DNA of 64,000 nucleotides from an uncultured Thermoleophilia bacterium (GCA_963834905.1 CAWIDR010000021.1:447-64446), one strand, 5' to 3'. Positions 15,807-30,038 are shown, counted from the first letter of the stretch. Notes: generated from the letters alone by a model not told the origin. Program-made: numbers and translations.

Positions 15807-15912
15807 ACTTTTTCTCTCTTCGGGTAGACTATGCTCGTAGTCATGTCCCACACGGAGTGCATTGGCGACTCGCCGGGACGGATTCCAGGCAGCGAGGTGG
15901 ACTAGCCGTCCA

Positions 15913-17783
15913 ATGAAGCGCTCTCTCTACCGCGAGTACCGCCCCCAGACCTTCTCCGAGCTCGTCGGACAGGACCATGTCGCGCGCACCCTGCGCAACG
16001 CGGTCGAGACCGACCAGGTCGCCCACGCCTACATCTTCGCGGGGCCGCGCGGCACCGGGAAGACGAGCACCGCGCGCATCCTGGCCAAGGCGCTCAACTG
16101 CGTCGGCGCCGACGGCGCCGGGGACCGTCCCACGGCCACCCCCTGCGGCGTCTGCCGCCACTGCGTCGCCATCGCCGACGGCACGTCGCTGGACGTCATC
16201 GAGATGGACGCCGCCTCCAACCGCAGCATCGACGACGTGCGCGACCTGCGCGACAAGATCGCCTTCGCGCCGGTCGACGGCCGCTTCAAGGTCTACATCG
16301 TGGACGAGGTCCACATGCTCACGCGCGAGGCCTTCAACGCGCTGCTCAAGACGCTGGAGGAGCCGCCGGACAACGTCGTCTTCGTGCTGGCGACCACCGA
16401 GGCGCACAAGATCCCCGAGACGATCGTCTCGCGCTGCCAGCGGTTCGACTTCCACCGCCCCCAGGTGACGGACATCGTGCACCTTCTCGCCGGGATCGTG
16501 GAGCGCGAGAACGCGCGCCCCGACGACGAGCGCGGCGGCCCGCCCATCGTCATCCAGACCGAGGCGCTGCACATCATCGCGCGCCACTCGCAGGGCGGGT
16601 TCCGCGACGCCATCGGCACCCTGGACAAGCTGGTCACCTACTCCGAGGGCACGATCGCGTCCGCCGACGTGCTGGAGGCGCTGGGCGTCACCAGCAGCGA
16701 CCTGCTCTTCGAGATCACCGACATCGTCATCGAGCGGCGCACGGCCGAGGCGCTCCAGTTCGTCCAGCGCCTCGCCAACGAGGGCACCGACTACTCGCAG
16801 TTCATCCGCGACCTGCTGCGCCACCTGCGCCAGCTGTTCCTGCTCCAGCACCTGGAGGATGCGGCCAGCGACGAGGCGACGCTGCGCACGCTGGGACACA
16901 CCGTGGAGCTCGACGGCGAGCTGTTCCGCGAGCAGTTGCAGCGCGCCGGGCAGGTCTCGCCGCGCGAGGTCGTGTTCTTCATCGAGTCGCTCGGGCAGGC
17001 CCAGCGCGAGATCCGCGACGGCCTCGACCCGCGGCTGCAGGTCGAGCTCGCGCTCGTCAAGGTGACGCGGCCGGAGCTCGACCACACAGAATCCGCCCTC
17101 GAAGAGCGCCTGCGGCGCCTCGAGGCCGCGGCGGCCGGAGCCGGCCGTCCACCGGCCGCCCCGCGCGCGGAGCCGGCCAAGGCCCGGCCCGAGAAGGCCG
17201 CGGCGGCCGAGGCCGCCCCTGAGAAGGCCGCGCCCGCAGGGCCGGCGGCCGAGCCCCCGCGGCCGCAGAGCCCGCGCCGCCCGCGGCGCAGCCGGAGCGC
17301 CCGCCGCAGCCCGGGACCGCCGGCCCGGTCGCGCCGGAGCCGGAGCCCGCAGCCCGCCCGGCGCCTGAGCCGGCGACGGCCGACGCCGCTCCCGCGCAGG
17401 AGCTCACGCTCGAGCGCGTCAAGCGCGCCTGGGAGCTCATCCTGCAGCGCGTGCAGGCCGTCCGCGTGCCCCTGTACGGCTTCTTGCGCGACGGCCGCCC
17501 GTCCGCCCTCGAGGGAGACGCGCTCACCGTGGCGCTGCCGTCGGAGTTCGCTCTCCGCAACGCGGCCCAGAACGACAACGCCGATGTCCTCGCCGCCGCC
17601 GTGGAGGGCGTCCTGGGACGCCGCGTCACGGCGCGGTTCGAGCTGGCCTCCGGCGCCGCGGCCCAGGCCGCAGCTCCGGCCGCTCCCGCCGCGCCGCCGG
17701 CGACGTCCCTCCCCGATTTCACCGACCAGATCCGTGCCGCGCAGGCCAAGCTCGATGCCGAGCTGCTGCCGGACGAGTCATAA
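15913..17783 (+). CDS. dnaX: DNA polymerase III subunit gamma/tau (frameshift in the Pro/Ala linker near 17250-17380)
   Basis: SLYREYRPQTF, GPRGTGKT, CGVCRHC, DEVHML, SRCQRF; C-terminal domain in ORF 17451..17783. Confidence 0.93.
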
Positions 17784-17793
17784 GGAGACCATC

Positions 17794-18120
17794 GTGGCCA
17801 ATCCTCAGTACAACAAGATGATGAAGCAGGTCCAGGAGATGCAGCGCAAGATGGCGCAGGCTCAGGAGGAGCTCGCCGTCGAGACCGTCGAGGCGAGCGC
17901 CGGCGGCGGCGTCGTGACCGTGGTGGTCACCGGCTCGCTCGAGATCAAGGAAGTCCGCATCAACCCGGACGCCGTGGATCCCGAGGACGTCGAGATGCTC
18001 CAGGACCTCGTCGTCGCAGCCACCAACGAGGCGCTGCGCGCCGCCCAGGACCTCGCCAGCACCAAGCTCGGCGGCGCCACCGGCGGCCTCGACCTGCCCA
18101 ACATCCCCGGCCTGTTCTAA
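17794..18120 (+). CDS. ybaB: YbaB/EbfC nucleoid-associated protein
   Basis: MMKQVQEMQRKMAQAQEEL, ASAGGGVVTV, DVEMLQDLV; TAAGGAG RBS; dnaX-ybaB-recR synteny. Confidence 0.93.
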   Translation: MANPQYNKMMKQVQEMQRKMAQAQEELAVETVEASAGGGVVTVVVTGSLEIKEVRINPDAVDPEDVEMLQDLVVAATNEALRAAQDLASTKLGGATGGLDLPNIPGLF

Positions 18121-18206
18121 GCCGCCCCTGCCGTCGCCGGCGGCGGCATGCGCCGATCCTCGCGTGGCATCGTCGTCGCCGGCGGCATGGCATGCGCCGA
18201 TCGTCG

Positions 18207-18339
18207 CGTGGCGTCATGGATGATGCCTCGGGTGGCGTCATGAGCAGCGTCACCGGGTGGCGTCACCGGTGGCGTCATGGGTGGCGTCATGGGTGGCGTC
18301 ACCGGTGGCGTCATGGGTGGCGTCATGGGTGGCGTCGAT
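18207..18339. repeat. 12-bp tandem repeat GGTGGCGTCA(TG/CC), 7 contiguous units plus degenerate ones
   Basis: Contiguous units 18256-18339 in order ACC,ATG,ATG,ACC,ATG,ATG,GAT; related copies at 18207, 18231, 18243. Confidence 0.9.
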
Positions 18340-18752
18340 CGACGACGCATACCCCCGACCCATCCGAGCTGACGGCCGCGGGGAATGGCGGCGTCCGGCG
18401 GAGTCCCAGCGACGTCGCGCGCGAGAGGCTGCCGGGCGGGGCGATGAAGCGCCCGGCGGCTCCCTCGGCTTGCAGCCTGGAGAACGCGCGTTTAGACTGT
18501 GCATATCGGACTCCATCAAGTCCTGAATGCGGCCTTTCCGGCGCGCCGCTCCGCCTCCTCCGCTCGGACACGCAGCCGGGAGCGCTCGACCAGACCGTTC
18601 TGGGCGTCGGCGAAGCGAAGAACACCCCCGTCGCGTTGCCGCTTCGAACGTAAGCGAGTAAACTACGTAGCTGGTCTGCGGGCGCCGGCGACGGCGCCCG
18701 AATCATGCAACTGCAGTGCATAGCAAGTCGCGCACTGCGGGAGTCGATGGGA

Positions 18753-19355
18753 ATGTATGCAGCTCCGGTCGAGCGCCTGATCACCGAGTTCTCCAAGCTC
18801 CCCGGCATCGGTCCCCGCACCGCCCAGCGCCTCACCTTCCACCTGCTCCGGCTGCGCCCGGACGAGGTGCTGCCGCTGGCGGCGGCGATCGTCGAGGTCA
18901 AGGAGAAGATCGGGTTCTGCACGCCGCTGCTTCAACCTGGCCGAGGGCGAGCTGTGCACCATCTGCGCCGACCCGCGGCGCGACCCCCGGCGCTCTGCGT
19001 CGTCGAGCAGCCGTTCGATGTGGTCACCATCGAGCGCACGCGCGAGTTCCACGGCTACTACCACGTCCTCGGCGGGGCGCTCAGCCCCATCGACGGCGTC
19101 GACCCAGAGGACCTGCACATGGCGGAGCTCCTCACACGCGTGGACGACGACGTCACCGAAGTGATCGTGGCGACCAATCCGACCATGACGGGCGAGGCGA
19201 CGGCGATGTACGTCGCCGACCTGCTGCCGGAGCGAGTACGCGTCACGCGACTCGCCAGCGGCCTCCCGGTGGGCGGCGACCTTGAATACGCCGACGAGCT
19301 GACACTGGGCCGCGCCCTCACGGGGCGTCGCGACGTGCGGCACGGAGAGGAGTGA
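18753..19355 (+). CDS. recR: Recombination mediator RecR (compensating frameshifts in the Zn finger near 18920-18990)
   Basis: KLPGIGPRTAQRL, YHVLGGALSPIDG, IVATNPTMTGEATA, GGDLEYADELTL. Confidence 0.93.
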   Translation: MYAAPVERLITEFSKLPGIGPRTAQRLTFHLLRLRPDEVLPLAAAIVEVKEKIGFCTPLLQPGRGRAVHHLRRPAARPPALCVVEQPFDVVTIERTREFHGYYHVLGGALSPIDGVDPEDLHMAELLTRVDDDVTEVIVATNPTMTGEATAMYVADLLPERVRVTRLASGLPVGGDLEYADELTLGRALTGRRDVRHGEE

Positions 19356-19357
19356 AG

Positions 19358-19967
19358 ATGGCGACGAAGACCGGCAAGAAGGACGTGAAGGCGCACGCCC
19401 GCCCTCACGGAGATCCGCTGGCACGGCCGCGGCGGGCAGGGCGCCGTCACCGCGGCCAAGATGGTGGCCGAGCTGGCCCTTGGCGAGGGCAAGTACTTCC
19501 AGGCCTTCCCCGAGTACGGGCCGGAGCGTTCCGGCGCGCCGATCGTCGCGTTCACGCGCGTCAGCGACGCGCCGATCCAGGTGTACTCGGGCATCGAGCA
19601 CCCGCAGATCGTGGTCGTGCTCGACTCGTCCCTGCTGAAGATCGTCGACGTCACCAAGGGCGCGCCCGACGACGCCATCGTGCTCGTCAACAGCGAGCGC
19701 TCGCCGGCCCAGCTCCGCAAGGACTCCGGCCTCAAGGGCGGCCGCCTCTACACCATCGCCGCGACCCGCATCGCGGTCGAGACCATCAAGCGTCCCATCC
19801 CGAACACGCCGATGGTCGGCGCGCTCACGCGCATCACCGGGCTGTTCGACATCGATGACGTCGTCACGTTCCTGCGCGAGGACTTCGGCAAGAAGTTCCC
19901 GCCCAAGGTCGTCGAGGGCAACATCGCCGCCATCACTCGCAGCTACGAGGAGGTCCAGGGCGAATGA
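19358..19967 (+). CDS. porC: 2-oxoacid (pyruvate):ferredoxin oxidoreductase gamma subunit (frameshift near 19400)
   Basis: EIRWHGRGGQGAVTAAK, AFPEYGPERSGAP, IPNTPMVGA. Confidence 0.92.
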
Positions 19968-20355
19968 CCGTGGACAAGAAGGCAGGCGCAAAGAAGCCGG
20001 CGCCGCTCAAGAAGCCCGCGGCGCGCAAGGCGCCCGCCAAGAAGAAGCCGACGTGGGACATCAGCGACGTCGACCAGTGGGGTCCTGAGCGGCACGAGCT
20101 CGGCGCCACCATCATCGAGGCCGGCAACTCCGTCTACAACGAGACCGGCGGCTGGCGCTCCCTCGTCCCCGAGATCGACGTCGGACGAAGTGCGACGGCT
20201 GCATGCTGTGCTACTTCTACTGCCCCGACGCCTCGATCATCATCGAGGACAACAAGGCGACGGGCATCGACCTCGAGCACTGCAAGGGCTGCGGCATCTG
20301 CGCCAAGGAGTGCCCGACCAAGGCCATCGTCATGCAGATCGACAAGAAGGAGTGA
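19964..20355 (+). CDS. porD: 2-oxoacid:ferredoxin oxidoreductase delta subunit, 2x[4Fe-4S] (frameshift near 20180)
   Basis: TGGWRSLVP, then CDGCMLCYFYCPD and HCKGCGICAKECPTKAI. Confidence 0.9.
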
Positions 20356-20357
20356 CC

Positions 20358-21560
20358 GTGGCTGTCACTGAATCCGAGATCCTCGCAGTCACCGGGAACG
20401 AGGCCGTCGCCGAGGCGATGGGCCAGATCGACCCCGACGTCGTCTGCGCCTACCCCATCACGCCGCAGACCGAGGTCGTGCAGCTCTACGCCCAGATGGT
20501 CGCCGACGGCAAGGTCGCGACCGAGTTCGTCACCGTCGAGAGCGAGCACAGCGCCATGAGCGCCGTGATCGGCTCCGCCGCCGGCGGCGCGCGGACGATG
20601 ACGGCGACCTCCTCCCAGGGCTTCGCCCTCATGTGGGAGGTCCTCTTCGTCGCCGCGAGCTACCGGCTCCCCGTCGTCATGACCACGGTGAACCGCGCGC
20701 TCTCCGGCCCCATCAACATCCACTGCGACCACAGCGACACCATGGGCGGCCGGGACACCGGCTGGGTCCAGCTCTACGGCGAGAACCACCAGGAGGCCTA
20801 CGACAACTGCATCCAGGCCATCCGCATCGCCGAGCACATGGACGTGCGCCTGCCGGTCATGCACATGTACGACGGCTACGTCATCAGCGGCGCCATCGGG
20901 CCGCTGCAGATGCTCACCAAGGAGCAGGTGCAGAAGTTCATCGGCCCGTACCGGCCGACGAACCCCATGCTCGACGCCAAGAACCCCGTCACCGTCGGCC
21001 CGTTCGACGGCCTGCACGGCTGGTACTTCGAGCACAAGGTGGCCCAGAACCGGGCCATGGACCGCTCCCTGCAGGTCATCCAGGACGTCGCCGACGAGTA
21101 CGCCGAGCTCAGCGGCCGCAAGTACGGGCTGCTCGAGCCGTACCGCCTCGAGGACGCCGAGGTCGCCATCGTCGTCGTCGGCTCCACCGCCGGCACGACG
21201 CGGATGACGGTCGACAAGCTGCGCGCCCGCGGCGTCAAGGCCGGCATGGTGCGCGTGCGCGCGTTCCGGCCGTTCCCGCACGCGGCGTACGCCGAGGCGC
21301 TCCAGCACGTGAAGGTCGTGGGCGTCATGGACCGCGCCGATTCGTTCGGCGCCCAGGGCGGCCCCGTCTTCCTCGAGGTCCGCAGCGCCCTCTACGACTG
21401 CGACCCGCGTCCCCAGGTCCTGCCGTTCATCTACGGCCTGGGCGGGCGGGACATCTTCCCCGACAACATCGAGCAGGCGTTCGCCGAGCTCGAGAAGACC
21501 GCCAAGAGCAAGCAGCGCGCCAGCACCGAGCGGCGCTACCTGAATCTGCGCAAGGACTGA
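20358..21560 (+). CDS. porA: 2-oxoacid:ferredoxin oxidoreductase alpha subunit
   Basis: TGNEAVA, AYPITPQTE, VESEHSAMS, TATSSQG, NRALSGPINIHCDHSD, YGLGGRD. Confidence 0.95.
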   Translation: MAVTESEILAVTGNEAVAEAMGQIDPDVVCAYPITPQTEVVQLYAQMVADGKVATEFVTVESEHSAMSAVIGSAAGGARTMTATSSQGFALMWEVLFVAASYRLPVVMTTVNRALSGPINIHCDHSDTMGGRDTGWVQLYGENHQEAYDNCIQAIRIAEHMDVRLPVMHMYDGYVISGAIGPLQMLTKEQVQKFIGPYRPTNPMLDAKNPVTVGPFDGLHGWYFEHKVAQNRAMDRSLQVIQDVADEYAELSGRKYGLLEPYRLEDAEVAIVVVGSTAGTTRMTVDKLRARGVKAGMVRVRAFRPFPHAAYAEALQHVKVVGVMDRADSFGAQGGPVFLEVRSALYDCDPRPQVLPFIYGLGGRDIFPDNIEQAFAELEKTAKSKQRASTERRYLNLRKD

Positions 21561-21570
21561 GGTGACACGG

Positions 21571-22386
21571 ATGCCGAGAAGGAACGGCACGACCACCGAG
21601 CCCAAGGGCTCGGCTCTCTACGAAGTCCTCAAGGGGATCGACTTCGAGCGCCGCGAGCTCGTGGACAAGACACGCGGCGTAGGGCTCTTCGACCTCGTCA
21701 AGGACAAGGCCGGCGCCTACAAGTGCTACGCCTGCACGCTGTGCGAGCGCACCTGCCCCGTGGACTGCATCGAGATCGACTACTGCCCCGAGTTCGAGGA
21801 ACTGCCCTTCGACATCGAGGCCGAACGCGCCGCCGCCCTGCTCACCCTGCCGGGTGAGAGCTGCGGCGCCAACGCCGCCTGCGTCATGGGCGAGCAGCCG
21901 GCCGGCTTCGTGCCGGAGATCGACATGAAGCTCTTCGACCCCGTCGTCGCCGCCATCCGCGCCGGCTCCGGCCTGGTCGAGGCCCTGCACACCACGCAGG
22001 AGGCCTTCGGCTACCTGCCGCGCGTCGCGCTCGAGGACATCGCCGAGGAGATGCACCTGCCGTTCTCGCGCGTCTTCGGCGTCGCCAGCTTCTACGGCCA
22101 GTTCCGTCTGGTCCCTGTGGGCAAGTACGTCATCGACGTGTGCATGGGCACCGCCTGCCACGTCGCCGGCGCGCCGCTCGTCGTCGAGGCCTTCAGCCAG
22201 GAGCTCGACATCCCGGTGGGCAGGCACCACGCCCGACGGCCTGTTCACTCTCCAGACGGTGAACTGCGTCGGCGCCTGCGCCCTGGCGCCGGTCGGTGCG
22301 CCTCGGCGACGAGGAGACCATCGGGCGCGTGGGCCCAACGAGGCGCGCAAGCTCGTCCGCAAGCTTCGCAAGGCGGAGGTGCCGGC

Positions 22387-22390
<4 letters not shown>
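21571..22390 (+). CDS. NuoE/HydC-like [2Fe-2S] subunit with an N-terminal NuoI-like single 4Fe-4S motif (frameshifted)
   Basis: [52 protein letters not shown]; inserting one A at about 22390 gives an ATGA stop/start overlap with the next gene. Confidence 0.85.
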
Positions 22391-24313
<1,923 letters not shown>

Positions 24314-24317
<4 letters not shown>

Positions 24318-27300
24318 GCCCGCGTACCAAGGCTGCCGTCCAGCTCACCGTCGACGGCCGCCAGCTCACCGCCCGCGAGGGCGAGACCGTGCTCGAGGTG
24401 GCGCGGCGCGAAGGGATCGACATCCCCGCGCTCTGCCACCAGGAGGGCATGGCCGCGTGGGGCGCCTGCCGCCTGTGCATGGTCGAGGTCGAAGGCCTCG
24501 ACAAGCTCCAGGCGGCCTGCACCACGTGGGTCAAGGACGGCCAGGTCGTCAAGACGGACACCAAGCGCGTCCGCGCGCGCCGCGAGAGCTACCTCAAGAT
24601 GTACCTCTCGGACCACAACGCCTACTGTGAGGCGCCGTGCTCGCACGCCTGCCCCACGCACATCGACATCCCCGCGTACATGGAGGCGCTGGCCTCCGGC
24701 GACGCCTCCGGCGCGGCCAGCATCGTGCGTGACGAGCTGCCGTTCCCCGGCATCCTCGGGCGCGTGTGCCCGCGCTACTGCGAGCCGGTGTGCCGCCGCG
24801 GTGACGTGGACGAGCCCATCGCCATCTGCGCCCTCCATCGGGCGGCCGCCGACCACAGCGGCACGGTCCTGGTGCCGGGCATGCCGACCGGCCGGAGGGT
24901 CGCCGTCATCGGCGCCGGCCCGGCCGGCCTCACCGCCGCCTGGTTCCTCACGCAGGGCGGCCACGAGGTCACCATCTACGACGCCAACGAGGAGCCGGGC
25001 GGGTCGCTGCGCTACAGCATCCCCGAGTTCCGCCTCCCCGGGAAGGTCGTCGAGAAGGAGCTCGAGCCGCTCTGGGACGCCGGCGTGCGCTTCATCGGCG
25101 AGTCCGAGCTGGGCTACGAGGTCGACCCCGACGGGCTCTTCGACGCCGGGTTCGACGCGGTGATCATCAGCGTCGGCAACTGGGAGGAGTCGCGTCACGT
25201 CATCCCCGGTGACGACGTCGCCCTGAACGGCCTCGAGCTGCTCAAGCGGTCGCGCGAGGGCCGGGCCGTGAAGTTCACCCAGAAGGTCGTCGTCATCGGC
25301 GACGGCATCACCGCGTTCGACGTCGCCCGCACGGCGCGCCGCAAGGGCGCCAAAGAGGTCGTCGTCATCGCCCAGCACGAGGCCGACGACATCCCGGCCG
25401 GCGCCCGCGACCTCGCCGCCGCCCTCGAGGAGGGCGTCAAGGTCGAGTTCGGCGCCCTGACCAAGAAGGTCAAGACCAAGGGCGGCAAGGCGCAGGGCGT
25501 CGAGTGCGTCCGCGTCGTGCGCGAGAAGGGCCGCCGCAAGGAGCTCCGCGGCTCGCGCTTCGAAGTCGCCGCGACGACCGTCGTCATGGCGACCGGCTAC
25601 GCGCCCAGGCTCGGCGACAGCGCCGACTACCTGCCGCTGGCCGACTCGCGGCTCATCGCCAACTACTACACCGGCCGCACGCCGGAAGAAGGCGTGTTCG
25701 CCGCCGGCGACGCGCTCACCGGCTCGCGGTCCGTCATCCACGCCGTGGCCGGCGGCAAGCGCTCCGCGCTCGCCGTCGACGCCTGGCTGCGCGGCGAGGA
25801 CCTCGAACGGCTCGAGGAGAAGCTGGCCGTCTACAACGGCCTGCCCTACCTCGACCAGCTCAAGGACGAGGCGCAGCTCGGCGAGCTCGGCGCGCGTCTC
25901 GCCGAGCGCAGCCCCGTGTGGCTCAAGATGGGCGCGAGCGCCGAGTCCGCGGCTCGCGCCACCATGCCCAAGGTCGGCAAGCAGAAGCGCCTCACGGCCA
26001 CCGACCTCGAGGTCGAGAAGGGCTACAGCCTCGCCGCCGCCCGCGCGGAGGCCTCACGCTGCCTGCAGTGCGAGTGCCCCAGCAACGGCGCCTGCGACCT
26101 GCAGAAGCTCGGCGTCGACTACGACATCACCGACAACGACCTCGTCGTCAAGGGCAACCTGGTCCGCCAGGTCGAGCCCCAGTACGAGCACCCGTTCATC
26201 CGCCGCGACATGAGCCGCTGCATCGCCTGCGGCAAGTGCGTGCGCGTGTGCCGGGACGTCGCCGGCCCGGCCTGCTACGACTTCACGGGCCGGGGCTTCG
26301 GGATCAACGTCGACACGCCCTACAGCGACGCCCTGCAGCTCGCCGACTGCATCAGCTGCGGCCGCTGCGTCACCGTCGTGCCCCACCGGCGCGCTCACGT
26401 TCAACGAGCGCGAACTGACCTCGTTCAAGGTCGACGAGAGCCGCTGCATCCTGTGCCACGAGTGCGTGGACGTGTGCCCGGTGGACGCCATCAAGGACAC
26501 CAACCACTTCGAGGACGCCCGCGACAAGTGGCGCGAGCTCGTCGCCAAGGGCAGCGAGCTGGCCGGCGGCCACCGCATGTGCGCCGGCTGCGGCGCCCCG
26601 ATCGCCGTGCGCCAGATCCTGATGGGCACGGAAGACCCCGTCGTCGTCTCGGCGGCCACCGGCTGCCTCGAGGTGAGCACCACCATCTACCCCTACACCT
26701 CGTGGAAGGGCAGCTACATCCACACCGCCTTCGAGAACTCGGCCGCGACGCTCTCCGGCGTCGAGACCGCGTACCGCGCCCTGAAGAAGAAGGGCCTCAT
26801 GGCGGAGGAGACCAAGTTCATCGCCTTCGGCGGCGACGGCGGCACCTACGACATCGGCCTGCAGTCGCTCTCCGGCGCCATGGAGCGTGGCCACCAGATG
26901 CTGTACGTCTGCTACGACAACGGCGCCTACATGAACACCGGGTTCCAGCGCTCCGGCGCGACGCCGCAGGGCGCCTGGACCACCACCAGCCCGGTCGGCA
27001 AGGCGCAGTCCGGCAAGATCCAGAACCGCAAGAACCTCACCGACATCATGATCGCCCACGAGCTCGGCTACGTGGCCCAGGCCTCGCCGCACGACCCGCG
27101 CGACCTCGTGCGCAAGTCGGCCAAGGCCCTGGACACGCCGGGCGCCACGTTCATCAACGTGCTGGCGCCCTGCCCGCGCGGCTGGCGTGCGGACGGCGCA
27201 GAGACCATCGACCTCGCCCGCGAGGCCGTGGAGACCTGCTACTGGCCGCTGTTCGAGGTCGTGGACGGCGAGTACCGGCTGACCTACCGGCCGCACCACA

Positions 27301-27494
27301 AGAAGCCGCTGATCCCGTGGCTCAAGCGCCAGGGCCGCTTCGCCCACCTGTTCAAGCCCGGCAACGAGGAGTCGCTCCTCAATCTCGAGGCCTGGGTGGA
27401 CAACGAGTGGGAGAAGCTCCTGCGCAAGTGCGGCGAGCCCAGCGAGGCCGAGTGGCAGGAGTACCTGCAGGCCAACGGCTGCCTGCTCCGCTAG
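24314..27494 (+). CDS. Fusion of NuoG-type Fe-S + GltD-like flavin domain (StnC-like) + extra 4Fe-4S + 2-oxoacid oxidoreductase beta subunit (PorB); one frameshift near 26378
   Basis: IPALC/GACRLCMVE/QAAC 2Fe-2S; APCSHACP, GRVCPRYCEPVC, IGAGPAG GltD; CIACGKC, CISCGRCVTV/CPTGAL, CILCHECVDVCP; CAGCG, GCLEV, FGGDGGTYDIG...YDNGAYMNTG, CPRGW PorB. Confidence 0.85.
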
Positions 27495-28794: not shown

Positions 28795-29126
28795 ATGCGG
28801 CGAACTGAGGAGACCATGCAGGGTGTGCGGGTGGCGCCCCACTTCCTGGTCGGCCATGGTCGGTGATCGTCGTCCCGACGTTCGCCGAGGAGAGTCTCAC
28901 GTCGTGGATGGAGCGCTTCGTCTGGTACGAACGCGTGCTCGTACGGCTGCCGGTCGACATCGTCGTGACGCTCCTCGTCGGCGGCGTCATCGGCGTGCTC
29001 GAGGTGACGCTGGCGCACGCGCTGATCGCCGACCAGCGGCGGCGGCGCGAAGCGAGGCGGCGGCCGTGGCGGCCGCCGGCTCCGGCAGCGCCCGCGGCGG
29101 CCCGGCCTCAGGACGCCGACAGGTAA
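28795..29126 (+). CDS. Small hypothetical membrane protein (probably frameshifted)
   Basis: Hydrophobic stretch IVVTLLVGGVIGVLEVTLAHALI; start uncertain. Confidence 0.35.
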
Positions 29127-30038
29127 CGCTGGGCGGCGGCGGCGGCCGTCGACCCCTCGGCCACGGCGGTCGCGATCATGCGCACCTTGCCCGGGTAGGC
29201 GGCGAAGTCGCCGACGGCGTACACGCCGGGCAGGCTGGTCTCCATGGCGGAGTCGACGTCGATCTTGGACCCGGAGAGCCCGAGCCCCCAGTGCTCGATG
29301 CCGGAGAGGTCGGGGACCTGGCCGATGCTCACCAGGACGAGGTCGGCCGGAAGTTCCAGCGACGACTCGTCGGGCCGCTGGATGACGATGCTCTCAAGGC
29401 GCTCCTTGCCCTTGAGGCCGACCACCTCGCCGTTGCTGACGACCTCGATGCCGGCCTCCGCGAAGCGGTCCTGCGTGTGCGCGAAGGCGCGGAACTCGTC
29501 GCGCCGGCGCACCACCGTGACCTCGGCGACCTCACGCAGCGAGAGCGCCGTGTCCAGGGCCGTGTCGCCGCCGCCGACGACGACGGCGCGCTTGGCGCGC
29601 ACCTCCTCGAGCGGCGGCAGCCGGTAGGCGAGCCCCTTGCCGAGGAAGCGGTCCTCGTCGGGCAGGCCGAGCCGGCGCGGGGTGAACCGGCCGAGGCCGA
29701 GCGCCAGCACCAGCGTCTTCGCGTCGTCCTGGCGCAGCGAGCCGTCGATCTTGAAGCCGCCGTCCCTCGGGCCTGACGTCCTCTACGGCGCGCCACTCTC
29801 TGAGCTCGGCGCCGAACTGCTCGGCCTGCTCGGCCAGGCGCAGCGCGAGCTCCCGCGACGGCAGCGACGGCTGCGCCGGGAAGTTGCTCACCGGCTTGGT
29901 CGGATACAGGTTGATGAGCTGGCCGCCGAAAGCCTCCGCCTCGTAGACGACGGCGCCGAGGCCGCGCAGGCCGGCATACATGGCCGTGGCCAGCCCCGCC
30001 GGCCCGCCGCCGATGATCGCGATGTCGTAGGTGCTCAT
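29108..30038 (-). CDS. Thioredoxin-reductase-fold ferredoxin--NADP+ reductase (YumC type; frameshift near 29770)
   Basis: IIGGGPAG, GGQLINLYPTKPV, VVGGGDTALD, VRRRDEFRA, YAVGDFAAYPGK; no redox CxxC. Confidence 0.82.

Follow-up and report, generated by a model that had tools for sequence, protein, structure and literature searches.

The 64,000-nucleotide stretch of DNA analysed here (hereafter, the window; positions are counted from its first letter) comes from a metagenome-assembled genome (MAG) of an uncultured Thermoleophilia bacterium (GCA_963834905.1 CAWIDR010000021.1:447-64446) and carries, on the + strand at 19352-27494, the operon porC-porD-porA-bfuC-bfuB-[bfuA~porB], in which the beta subunit of a 2-oxoacid oxidoreductase (PorB) and the subunit BfuA, with its flavin-type domain and iron-sulfur motifs, are encoded in one open reading frame (ORF). 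Comparison with orthologous loci indicates that this PorB~BfuA fusion is genuine and conserved across uncultured Thermoleophilia. We argue below that the operon probably, although by no means certainly, encodes one iron-sulfur flavoenzyme of the Por-Bfu kind, that is, a four-subunit-type 2-oxoacid oxidoreductase combined with a BfuBC bifurcating core.

The por-bfu operon

The layout was derived from a listing of ORFs and from Pfam matches, with the gene coordinates set via mapping onto an intact orthologous locus, L084. The features are as follows.

19352..19967, +, porC, gamma subunit of 2-oxoacid:ferredoxin oxidoreductase (Pfam POR, E 1e-32)
19964..20355, +, porD, delta subunit, 2x[4Fe-4S] (frameshift-aware alignment; the broken ORF is without Pfam match)
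20352..21560, +, porA, alpha subunit (Pfam POR_N 2e-70, PFOR_II 7e-30)
21562..22385, +, bfuC, NuoE/HydC-like [2Fe-2S] subunit (Pfam 2Fe-2S_thioredx)
22387..24317, +, bfuB, NuoF/HydB-like subunit for flavin mononucleotide (FMN) and NADH (Complex1_51K, SLBB, NADH_4Fe-4S and Fer4 pieces in three frames)
24314..27494, +, bfuA~porB fused gene, GTG start, 1059 codons without the extra base
24332..24853, +, BfuA part, [2Fe-2S] Fer2_4 and GltD-type Fer4_20, the latter with two putative [4Fe-4S] (Pfam)
24890..25801, +, GltD-like flavin domain (Pyr_redox_2)
25178-25600, +, NAD(P)H subdomain within the GltD-like flavin domain, divergent, without the YRR motif
26060..26579, +, Fe-S wire, CxxCxCx5C and three CxxCxxCxxxC(P) motifs, then a linker (motif alignment)
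26580..27494, +, PorB domain, beta subunit binding thiamine pyrophosphate (TPP), with CxxC...C...C ligands, GDG...N and the stop codon

Every gene junction is abutting or overlapping, with start and stop codons sharing bases at porC/recR and at bfuB and the GTG of the fused gene, and the six-gene order is kept in all loci with enough flank. A reading of the window made from the sequence alone (hereafter, the sequence-only reading) had proposed this gene order and domain content, and both were matched by Pfam on the window ORFs: Fer2_4, Fer4_20, Pyr_redox_2 and Fer4_Nqo3 were found in the frame at 24230, and translation of the frame that follows shows PorB, with CAGCG...GGDGG...YDNGAYMNTG. Its estimate of about 1060 amino acids (aa) for the last gene agrees with the 1059 codons obtained when one extra base is discounted, and the operon has indeed no separate porB, its only PorB being the C-terminal part of the fused gene.

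Reality of the fusion

In the window, the register changes within a CxxCxxCxxxCP motif at 26373-26381 (~26375), that is, inside the ferredoxin motif where the sequence-only reading had located the break; beyond this point, the next frame is stop-free, includes another CxxCxxCxxxCP motif and leads on to a complete PorB, a continuity seen both in the window translation and in intact orthologues. The junction in relatives is TGC GTC ACG TCG TGC CCC (CVTSCP), whereas the window has one extra C (GTCAC[C]GTCGTGCCCC, the bracketed C being the extra base). The residue at the break, previously read as Val, is Ser, since the relatives read CVTSCPTG. Comparison of the window with short-read Logan contigs from four public metagenome runs showed that one base is omitted at 26373 or 26378 in X2 (9.13/9.13 depth), X3 (16.9/30.3 and 10.4/27.4 depth) and X6 (20.3/34.5 depth). 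The extra base at ~26375 is an assembly error, not biology.

The orthologues point in the same direction. Of 41 genomes compared, including the window's own, 14 have the PorB part embedded in an open frame of 1100 aa or more; 13 of these belong to the same genus and one to another family of the class. Two of the ORFs measure 1088 aa (G002) and 1131 aa (G027, counted from the first start); both are intact fused proteins with Fer2_4, Fer4_20, Pyr_redox_2, Fer4_Nqo3, two Fer4 and TPP_enzyme_C in a single chain, the combination for which a search had been suggested. Scanning species-representative genomes yielded 77 loci, 72 of them of the fused actinobacterial type, and a single open frame of at least 1027 aa spans the junction in 48 of the 72, so that the homologs are far from being always unfused. 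The remaining fused-type loci comprise 12 cut by contig ends, 10 with frame changes, mostly in long-read 'MFD' MAGs, and two with in-frame deletions. In a protein collection, the junction-plus-PorB region matches 555 clusters at 90% identity (E <= 1e-10), with 106 of the 120 best-matching database proteins at least 1000 aa long. The fused family is tight, since clustering at 50% leaves a single full-length representative. The names of the fused proteins in databases are only automatic, e.g. 'formate dehydrogenase major subunit' or 'pyruvate ferredoxin oxidoreductase beta subunit'.

In one other long-read MAG (L071, ~11150), an extra base is found four nucleotides from the position of that in the window, within the same GTCACC...TGCCCC context; this offset within a common context is more suggestive of a consensus error that depends on the context than of common descent.

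The BfuA part, the Fe-S wire and the flavin domain

Residues 37-724 of the fused protein align with NfnA (9bov_A, E 2e-136; 9n5u_A) and StnC (8oh5_C), such that the N-terminal two thirds are homologous to StnC/NfnA, as the sequence-only reading had held for its NuoG-GltD part. The alignments to 9bov_A and 8oh5_C end at residue 724-747, after which comes TPP_enzyme_C and not the FdhF-like domain; where the latter would stand, the fused protein has a third CxxCxxCxxxCP motif, followed by a linker of 35 residues and by PorB. Judging from these alignments, PorB occupies the place of the catalytically dead FdhF-like domain of StnC/NfnA; this domain is described in the StnC study as inactive, with its clusters off-pathway (PMC10482914). 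All 11 Cys of the Fer2_4/Fer4_20 part and, more generally, every presumed Fe-S ligand Cys are kept in 50/50 fused proteins, including those of the third motif and Cys654, both of which are specific to the fused family.

The flavin domain presents a more mixed picture. The third flavin site that the sequence-only reading had ascribed to the complex is doubtful: the FAD (flavin adenine dinucleotide) motif GxGxxG is kept in 48/50 fused proteins, but the NADPH-specific Arg pair (YRR), found in 5/5 Nfn-type proteins, is present in 0/50 fused ones. The GGGNTA...YRR of the Nfn type reads GDGITA...AQHE in the window's genus, with many other variants elsewhere, and GxGxx[AG] is kept in 41/50 and lost in 9/50. 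Within the protein, conservation is lowest in the NAD(P)H subdomain (mean pairwise identity of 0.52 vs 0.66-0.87 for all other parts), which is deleted in frame in L093 (9073-11757) and L094 (9034-11766), where the stop-to-stop frames measure 894 and 910 aa and some 90-140 residues are missing. A gap in this place is seen also in L090 and L076, accompanied there by a change of frame. Given the absence of the Arg pair in 50/50 proteins and the weak conservation of the subdomain, NADPH probably does not serve the fused family as a general substrate. Binding of NADH by the flavin domain is possible in the window's genus; the GltD-like domain probably still binds FAD, with the NADPH specificity lost, and it may be vestigial.

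The bifurcating core

The window copy of bfuB being broken, BfuB is best judged from the intact protein of L084. Its residues 32-619 are aligned with BfuB from the NiFe-Bfu enzyme (7t2r_B, E 2e-237), and full-length alignments are likewise obtained with HydB (8a6t_B) and NfnB/StnB (9n5u_B, 9bov_B, 8oh5_B), all five chains coming from enzymes shown to bifurcate. The cysteine motifs align with those of 7t2r_B and 8a6t_B, namely, the N-terminal [2Fe-2S], CGKCVPC...LCxLG, RCPAKxC and two C-terminal ferredoxin motifs, and the same holds for the FMN/NADH site and the B1 [4Fe-4S] motifs, which lie in shifted frames in the window. The main text of the Bfu proposal (PMC9304861) describes non-bifurcating NuoF homologues as lacking the N-terminal [2Fe-2S], the Cys site (B2 or Zn) and the C-terminal 2x[4Fe-4S]. 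In the window, the N-terminal [2Fe-2S] motifs of bfuB are found at 22461-22655, and the ORF at 24054-24317, its 3' part, contains RCPAKVC and two CxxCxxCxxxC motifs. Hence, the NuoF motifs listed in the sequence-only reading, from the N-terminal [2Fe-2S] through the C-terminal 2x[4Fe-4S], are all present, and the alignment to solved chains lends substance to its view that this subunit has the hallmarks of bifurcating BfuB/HydB.

Built from 16 orthologues, the BfuC profile matches chains of NfnC, HydC and StnA with its positions 110-267 and, weakly, NuoI with its positions 33-69. The ligands of the C1 [2Fe-2S] cluster (Cys195, Cys200, Cys236 and Cys240) are kept in 56/56 proteins. Upstream of this conserved part, BfuC has an N-terminal extension of ~130 aa with eight Cys in the pattern CxxCxxCxxxCPxxCx5C...Cx5C (21562-21960 in the window; 6345-6750 in L067), each kept in 52-56 of 56 orthologues, which may hold one or two extra clusters. 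A word-based search found no such extension outside close relatives, and in the Nfn-type loci L098-L102 it is unaligned, the match setting in only from residue ~122-139 onward. A complex prediction with the G027 sequences, in which BfuC residues 14-135 were set against PorA, residues 768-1131 of the fused protein and PorD, gave 0.56 as compared to 0.57 for the control. As far as motifs can tell, BfuB and BfuC keep all the cluster and flavin sites of proven bifurcating enzymes.

The Por subunits and a stand-alone paralogue

The features of a four-subunit PorABCD are all present: POR_N and PFOR_II in alpha, POR in gamma, 2x[4Fe-4S] in delta, and TPP and four cluster Cys in beta. PorC and PorD, both intact in L084 (204 and 129 aa), match TIGR02175 PorC_KorC with 204.7 bits (cut-off 81.1) and TIGR02179 PorD_KorD with 93.3 bits (cut-off 60.05), respectively, and both CxxCxxCxxxCP motifs of PorD are invariant in 16 orthologues. 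The PorB domain matches the beta subunit of pyruvate:ferredoxin oxidoreductase (PFOR) in the structure database PDB (9bt4_C, E 5e-78), and 49-50 of 50 fused proteins retain its GGDGG and YDNGAYMNTG. Among the NCBIfam models, those of pyruvate synthase give the best matches, yet all below the equivalog cut-offs: PorA matches PorA_Arch (481.8 bits, cut-off 550), the PorB domain matches PorB with 354.5 bits (cut-off 405), and PorC and PorD match the models of the same names (201.1 vs 270 and 100 vs 120 bits).

Elsewhere in the genome, a different contig carries a further ferredoxin-PorB paralogue, which is unfused (G000:C25:53225-54267 (-)). Over its last 380 residues, which start with the second ferredoxin motif, the fused protein is 61% identical to this stand-alone protein, with motifs 2 and 3 of the Fe-S wire aligning with its ferredoxin domain. 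This identity suggests that BfuA became fused to such an Fd-PorB-like (ferredoxin-PorB-like) partner at a point inside a ferredoxin motif common to both.

Stand-alone proteins of this kind, with a 2x[4Fe-4S] ferredoxin domain followed by PorB and ~440-520 aa in length, occur also in L024 (9097-10623 (-)) and L104 (11685-13250 (-)). Near the stand-alone paralogue, no porA, porC or porD was found. In 11 genomes, its coordinates place it at a distance of 7.5-9.7 kb from the gene for acetyl-CoA synthase (ACS); in G021, it is convergent to a full cluster for carbon monoxide dehydrogenase/ACS (CODH/ACS), corrinoid iron-sulfur protein (CFeSP), RACo, CooC and AcsE, and in G002 it stands beside DUF1847, rubrerythrin, nifU and nifS, where an ACS match was not found.

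Proposed reaction and alternative explanations

If the operon encodes a single enzyme of the Por-Bfu kind, pyruvate and CoA would be converted to acetyl-CoA and CO2 at TPP, with the electrons leaving via the PorB [4Fe-4S]. They would then enter the cluster chain of BfuA through the third ferredoxin motif and proceed to the B1-FMN-C1 site in BfuBC, where electron pairs would be split between NAD+ (at the FMN) and ferredoxin (at the C-terminal clusters of BfuB). A comparable path is described for NfnABC of Caldicellulosiruptor saccharolyticus, where NADPH reduces the FAD and the electrons pass via A7-A6-A3-A2-A1 to B1 (PMC11829005). The reaction would probably be reversible, and in hosts with a Wood-Ljungdahl pathway the enzyme could equally well work as a pyruvate synthase driven by NADH plus ferredoxin. 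What is observed is that PorB and BfuA are covalently linked and that operon and motifs are conserved; the rest comes from homology and architecture, from which we infer the formation of a complex with BfuB/BfuC, the bifurcation and the direction of the reaction. The covalent fusion of PorB to BfuA is itself a gene-structure argument for Por and Bfu acting as one complex.

Several points weigh against the scenario. At ~-500 mV, the pyruvate couple matches ferredoxin in its low potential, so that bifurcation is not thermodynamically needed, an objection that the authors of the Por-Bfu proposal raise themselves in their main text (PMC9304861). Furthermore, porD is retained, so that the Por part could reduce free ferredoxin alone, and the Por-Bfu scheme leaves the role of the FAD domain unexplained. 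As their scores stay below the NCBIfam pyruvate equivalog cut-offs, the Por subunits do not fix the 2-oxoacid substrate. Finally, the window's own copy of the operon has ~20 indels, and the public metagenome contigs without the extra base may derive from close relatives rather than from the window strain.

The strongest alternative, which we consider unlikely but deserving of attention, is a non-bifurcating pyruvate:NAD(P)+ oxidoreductase in which the electrons of Por would pass via BfuA to one pyridine-nucleotide site, either the BfuB FMN or the GltD-like FAD, with ferredoxin not obligatory; it would resemble in its working the NADH-dependent phenylglyoxylate dehydrogenase or the eukaryotic pyruvate:NADP+ oxidoreductase. 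Pyruvate can thermodynamically reduce NAD(P)+ directly, and the conservation of the FAD motif GxGxxG in 48/50 and of GxGxx[AG] in 41/50 fused proteins would suit an enzyme of this type. Moreover, the fused C-terminal 380 residues show the ferredoxin-plus-beta layout of PadI, with a match to the NCBIfam model PhenlGlyoxDHPadI over residues 715-1034 (220.9 bits). However, this score is far under the cut-off of 700. A PadH-like origin of the flavin domain was also considered and rejected, the best 25 of the 39 matching NCBIfam families including no PadH model. The NAD(P)H subdomain is deleted in 2/50 proteins and degenerate in seven more. BfuB keeps the N-terminal [2Fe-2S], RCPAKVC and the C-terminal 2x[4Fe-4S], which, according to the main text of the Bfu proposal, are missing in non-bifurcating homologues (PMC9304861).

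It appears improbable that the enzyme is a Stn/Nfn-type transhydrogenase (NADPH, NAD+ and ferredoxin) to which Por was added as an input, yielding a four-substrate hub with NADP(H) still a main substrate. The alignment of residues 37-724, including the FAD domain, with NfnA/StnC is what would be expected of such an enzyme, as is the occurrence of Por-free NuoE-NuoF-BfuA clusters (L098-L102) in other phyla. Yet the GGGNTA...YRR of 5/5 Nfn-type proteins has become GDGITA...AQHE in the genus, the Arg pair being retained in 0/50 fused proteins, and the NAD(P)H subdomain shows a mean identity of 0.52 and is deleted in L093 and L094.

A further and still less probable variant is a closed, NAD(P)H-driven pyruvate synthase that would make pyruvate from acetyl-CoA and CO2 without free ferredoxin, for Wood-Ljungdahl anabolism. 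In such a machine, the pyridine nucleotide would be oxidised at the FMN or at a remodelled GltD-like FAD and its electrons then bifurcated, with the low-potential ones reaching Por via the 8-Cys NuoI-like extension of BfuC, the third motif with Cys654, and PorD. A last alternative, which concerns the integrity of the genes, is taken up with the frame breaks.

Frame breaks and assembly quality

The single frameshift of the sequence-only reading is correct for the fused gene, where the net change is one base, but not for the operon, which contains ~20 more apparent one-base indels. There is one extra base in porC, near 19394, and there are two in porD, at 20182 and 20186; porA shows no gaps vs L084 or L028. 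Frameshift-aware alignment to the G027 proteins indicates 3-4 apparent frameshifts in bfuC and ~14 in bfuB, and it is because of the latter that the NuoF motifs of the window bfuB are spread over three frames. One-base omissions in the public contigs are found also at 22999, 23282, 23565, 23714, 23744, 23880, 23932 and 24053.

As a reference for the counts of indels and substitutions, we used L028, the closest intact bfuBC locus. L084 was tried for bfuB and rejected: its bfuB is a divergent variant (87% nucleotide identity, 46 gaps), and this greater divergence inflates the indel and non-synonymous counts. Against L028, bfuB shows 21 gaps with a net gain of 14 bases. In the corrected frames, the synonymous and non-synonymous differences between the window and L028 number 63:45 in bfuB, 41:14 in bfuC and 59:8 in porA; because these differences are mostly synonymous, the por-bfu genes do not look like decaying pseudogenes.

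The indels are unevenly distributed. The 1.9 kb between 22195 and 24055 (the bfuC 3' end and bfuB) account for 43/52 gap openings vs L084, with none in the adjacent porA, and against the closer L028, bfuB alone contains 21/37 gaps. This local cluster possibly reflects a mixture of strains, paralogous bfuB copies or low coverage.

Frame breaks are also seen outside the operon. Upstream, in the region 15862-19355, dnaX reads into ybaB as one 752-aa ORF with an out-of-frame Pro/Arg-rich tail, and recR (18705-19355) shows an out-and-back frame excursion over its zinc-finger region, which is intact in L084 (IGFCSRCFNLAEGELCTICADPRRDP); the breaks in dnaX and recR are further signs of assembly indel errors. 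Downstream, at 29108-30038 (-), two overlapping ORFs resemble one thioredoxin-reductase-like flavoprotein (GGGPAG...GGGDTA...GD) that appears to be split by a frameshift. The genome scores as 64% complete in 42 contigs. The frame breaks of the window look like consensus errors of a long-read metagenome assembly, not biology. As to the same neighbourhood, the overlap of the porC start with the recR stop, which recurs in L084 (1703 and 1706), means that the por-bfu genes may be co-transcribed with dnaX-ybaB-recR.

Hence, it is very improbable that the window strain carries a decaying pseudogene cluster with real frameshifts, or that BfuA and PorB are two proteins: the ~20 apparent frameshifts with their concentration in 22195-24055 and the frame change in L071 a few bases from the same site could be read that way, but the public contigs lack the extra bases, the substitutions in corrected frames are mostly synonymous, recR and dnaX are frame-broken as well (recR being intact in L084), the genome is an incomplete, fragmented assembly, and a separate start signal for PorB is unneeded with the frame continuous in 50 orthologues.

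Host, distribution and origin

The host is an uncultured Thermoleophilia MAG from a genus in which a Wood-Ljungdahl gene cluster occurs: 22/26 genomes of this genus have acetyl-CoA synthase, and G021 has a full CODH/ACS-CFeSP-RACo-AcsE cluster. The hosts of the fused-type loci are labelled as uncultured Thermoleophilia, Gaiellales or Actinomycetota, with one bin assigned to Armatimonadia, and the family is abundant in metagenomes of wetland, sediment and soil. The loci L098-L102 (Desulfuromonas, Bacillota, Izemoplasmatales, Spirochaetales) match residues ~30-770 only, with 31-37% identity; NuoE/NuoF genes lie upstream and Por genes are missing, a gene content that marks these loci as ordinary Nfn/Stn-type clusters. 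The sister families of the class possess a conventional porC-porD-porA-porB operon (L025, L026), and the simplest history to be envisaged is an insertion of bfuC-bfuB-bfuA between porA and porB, with fusion to the latter.

Comparison with known systems

The nearest published relative is the Por-Bfu class (BfuA-G), predicted in 2022 by Schut et al. from 12 sequences with seven unfused subunits and uncharacterised (PMC9304861); thus, the suspicion of the sequence-only reading that a genome survey might have predicted such clusters was right. According to the main text of that paper, the hosts are Chloroflexi (Dehalococcoides) and syntrophic Proteobacteria, and the BfuA is a small Type 2 form without clusters A3 and A5 (PMC9304861). 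The words 'Actinobacteria', 'fusion' and 'fused' are absent from this main text, and its supplementary tables might include actinobacterial members. Por-Bfu has since been mentioned once in a 2025 paper. Our literature searches found no paper describing the PorB~BfuA fusion, in line with the earlier statement that no characterised enzyme with it is known.

What the fused system and the Por-Bfu class have in common is the clustering of Por genes with BfuABC, the proposal of pyruvate as a third substrate of an NAD(H)/ferredoxin core, and the question of one enzyme or two. The differences are that there are six genes here, with PorB fused to BfuA; that BfuA belongs to the Nfn/Stn type and includes a GltD-like flavin domain; that BfuC has an 8-Cys N-terminal extension; and that the host belongs to Thermoleophilia. 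In place of the separate subunits and the BfuA without A3 and A5 by which the published class is defined, PorB and BfuA form one ORF here, and the fused BfuA has a GltD insertion and three ferredoxin-type motifs. By its gene content and motifs, the fused enzyme would work like the published class but differ in architecture, and the six-gene fused form can be regarded as a putative new variant of the predicted Por-Bfu enzymes.

With StnABC/NfnABC of Sporomusa ovata (8OH5), Caldicellulosiruptor saccharolyticus (9BOV) and Thermococcus sibiricus (9N5U), the system shares the core of a NuoE-like, a NuoF-like and a [2Fe-2S]-GltD-NuoG-like subunit. Unlike in those enzymes, the FdhF-like domain is swapped for a third ferredoxin motif and PorB, YRR is lost, and the genes for Por alpha, gamma and delta are in the same operon. 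The likeness to PorABCD extends to all four subunits, alpha, gamma, delta and beta, with their TPP and cluster motifs, in the order porC-porD-porA...porB; here, however, three bfu genes stand between porA and porB, and porB is without its own start.

2-Oxoacid oxidoreductases hard-wired to a pyridine nucleotide include the NADH-dependent phenylglyoxylate dehydrogenase PadEFGHI and the eukaryotic pyruvate:NADP+ oxidoreductase; to our knowledge, neither has a NuoE/NuoF bifurcating core. PadI resembles the fused C-terminal part and the stand-alone paralogue in having an N-terminal ferredoxin domain on the beta subunit, and the NCBIfam scores for PadE, PadF, PadG and PadI are far below the cut-offs.

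The Bfu proposal left open, in its main text, whether adjacent genes of Por-, Codh- and similar type belong to one enzyme or to two neighbours (PMC9304861). For the lineage considered here, the conserved PorB~BfuA fusion answers this question at the level of gene structure. It also shows how the dead FdhF-like branch of a Stn/Nfn-type BfuA can become a live catalytic input. In hosts with a Wood-Ljungdahl cluster, the acetyl-CoA/pyruvate node sets the cost of carbon assimilation in low-potential reductant. With six genes and a built-in tether, the fused system is an attractive target for a first biochemical or cryo-electron microscopy study of a Por-Bfu enzyme.

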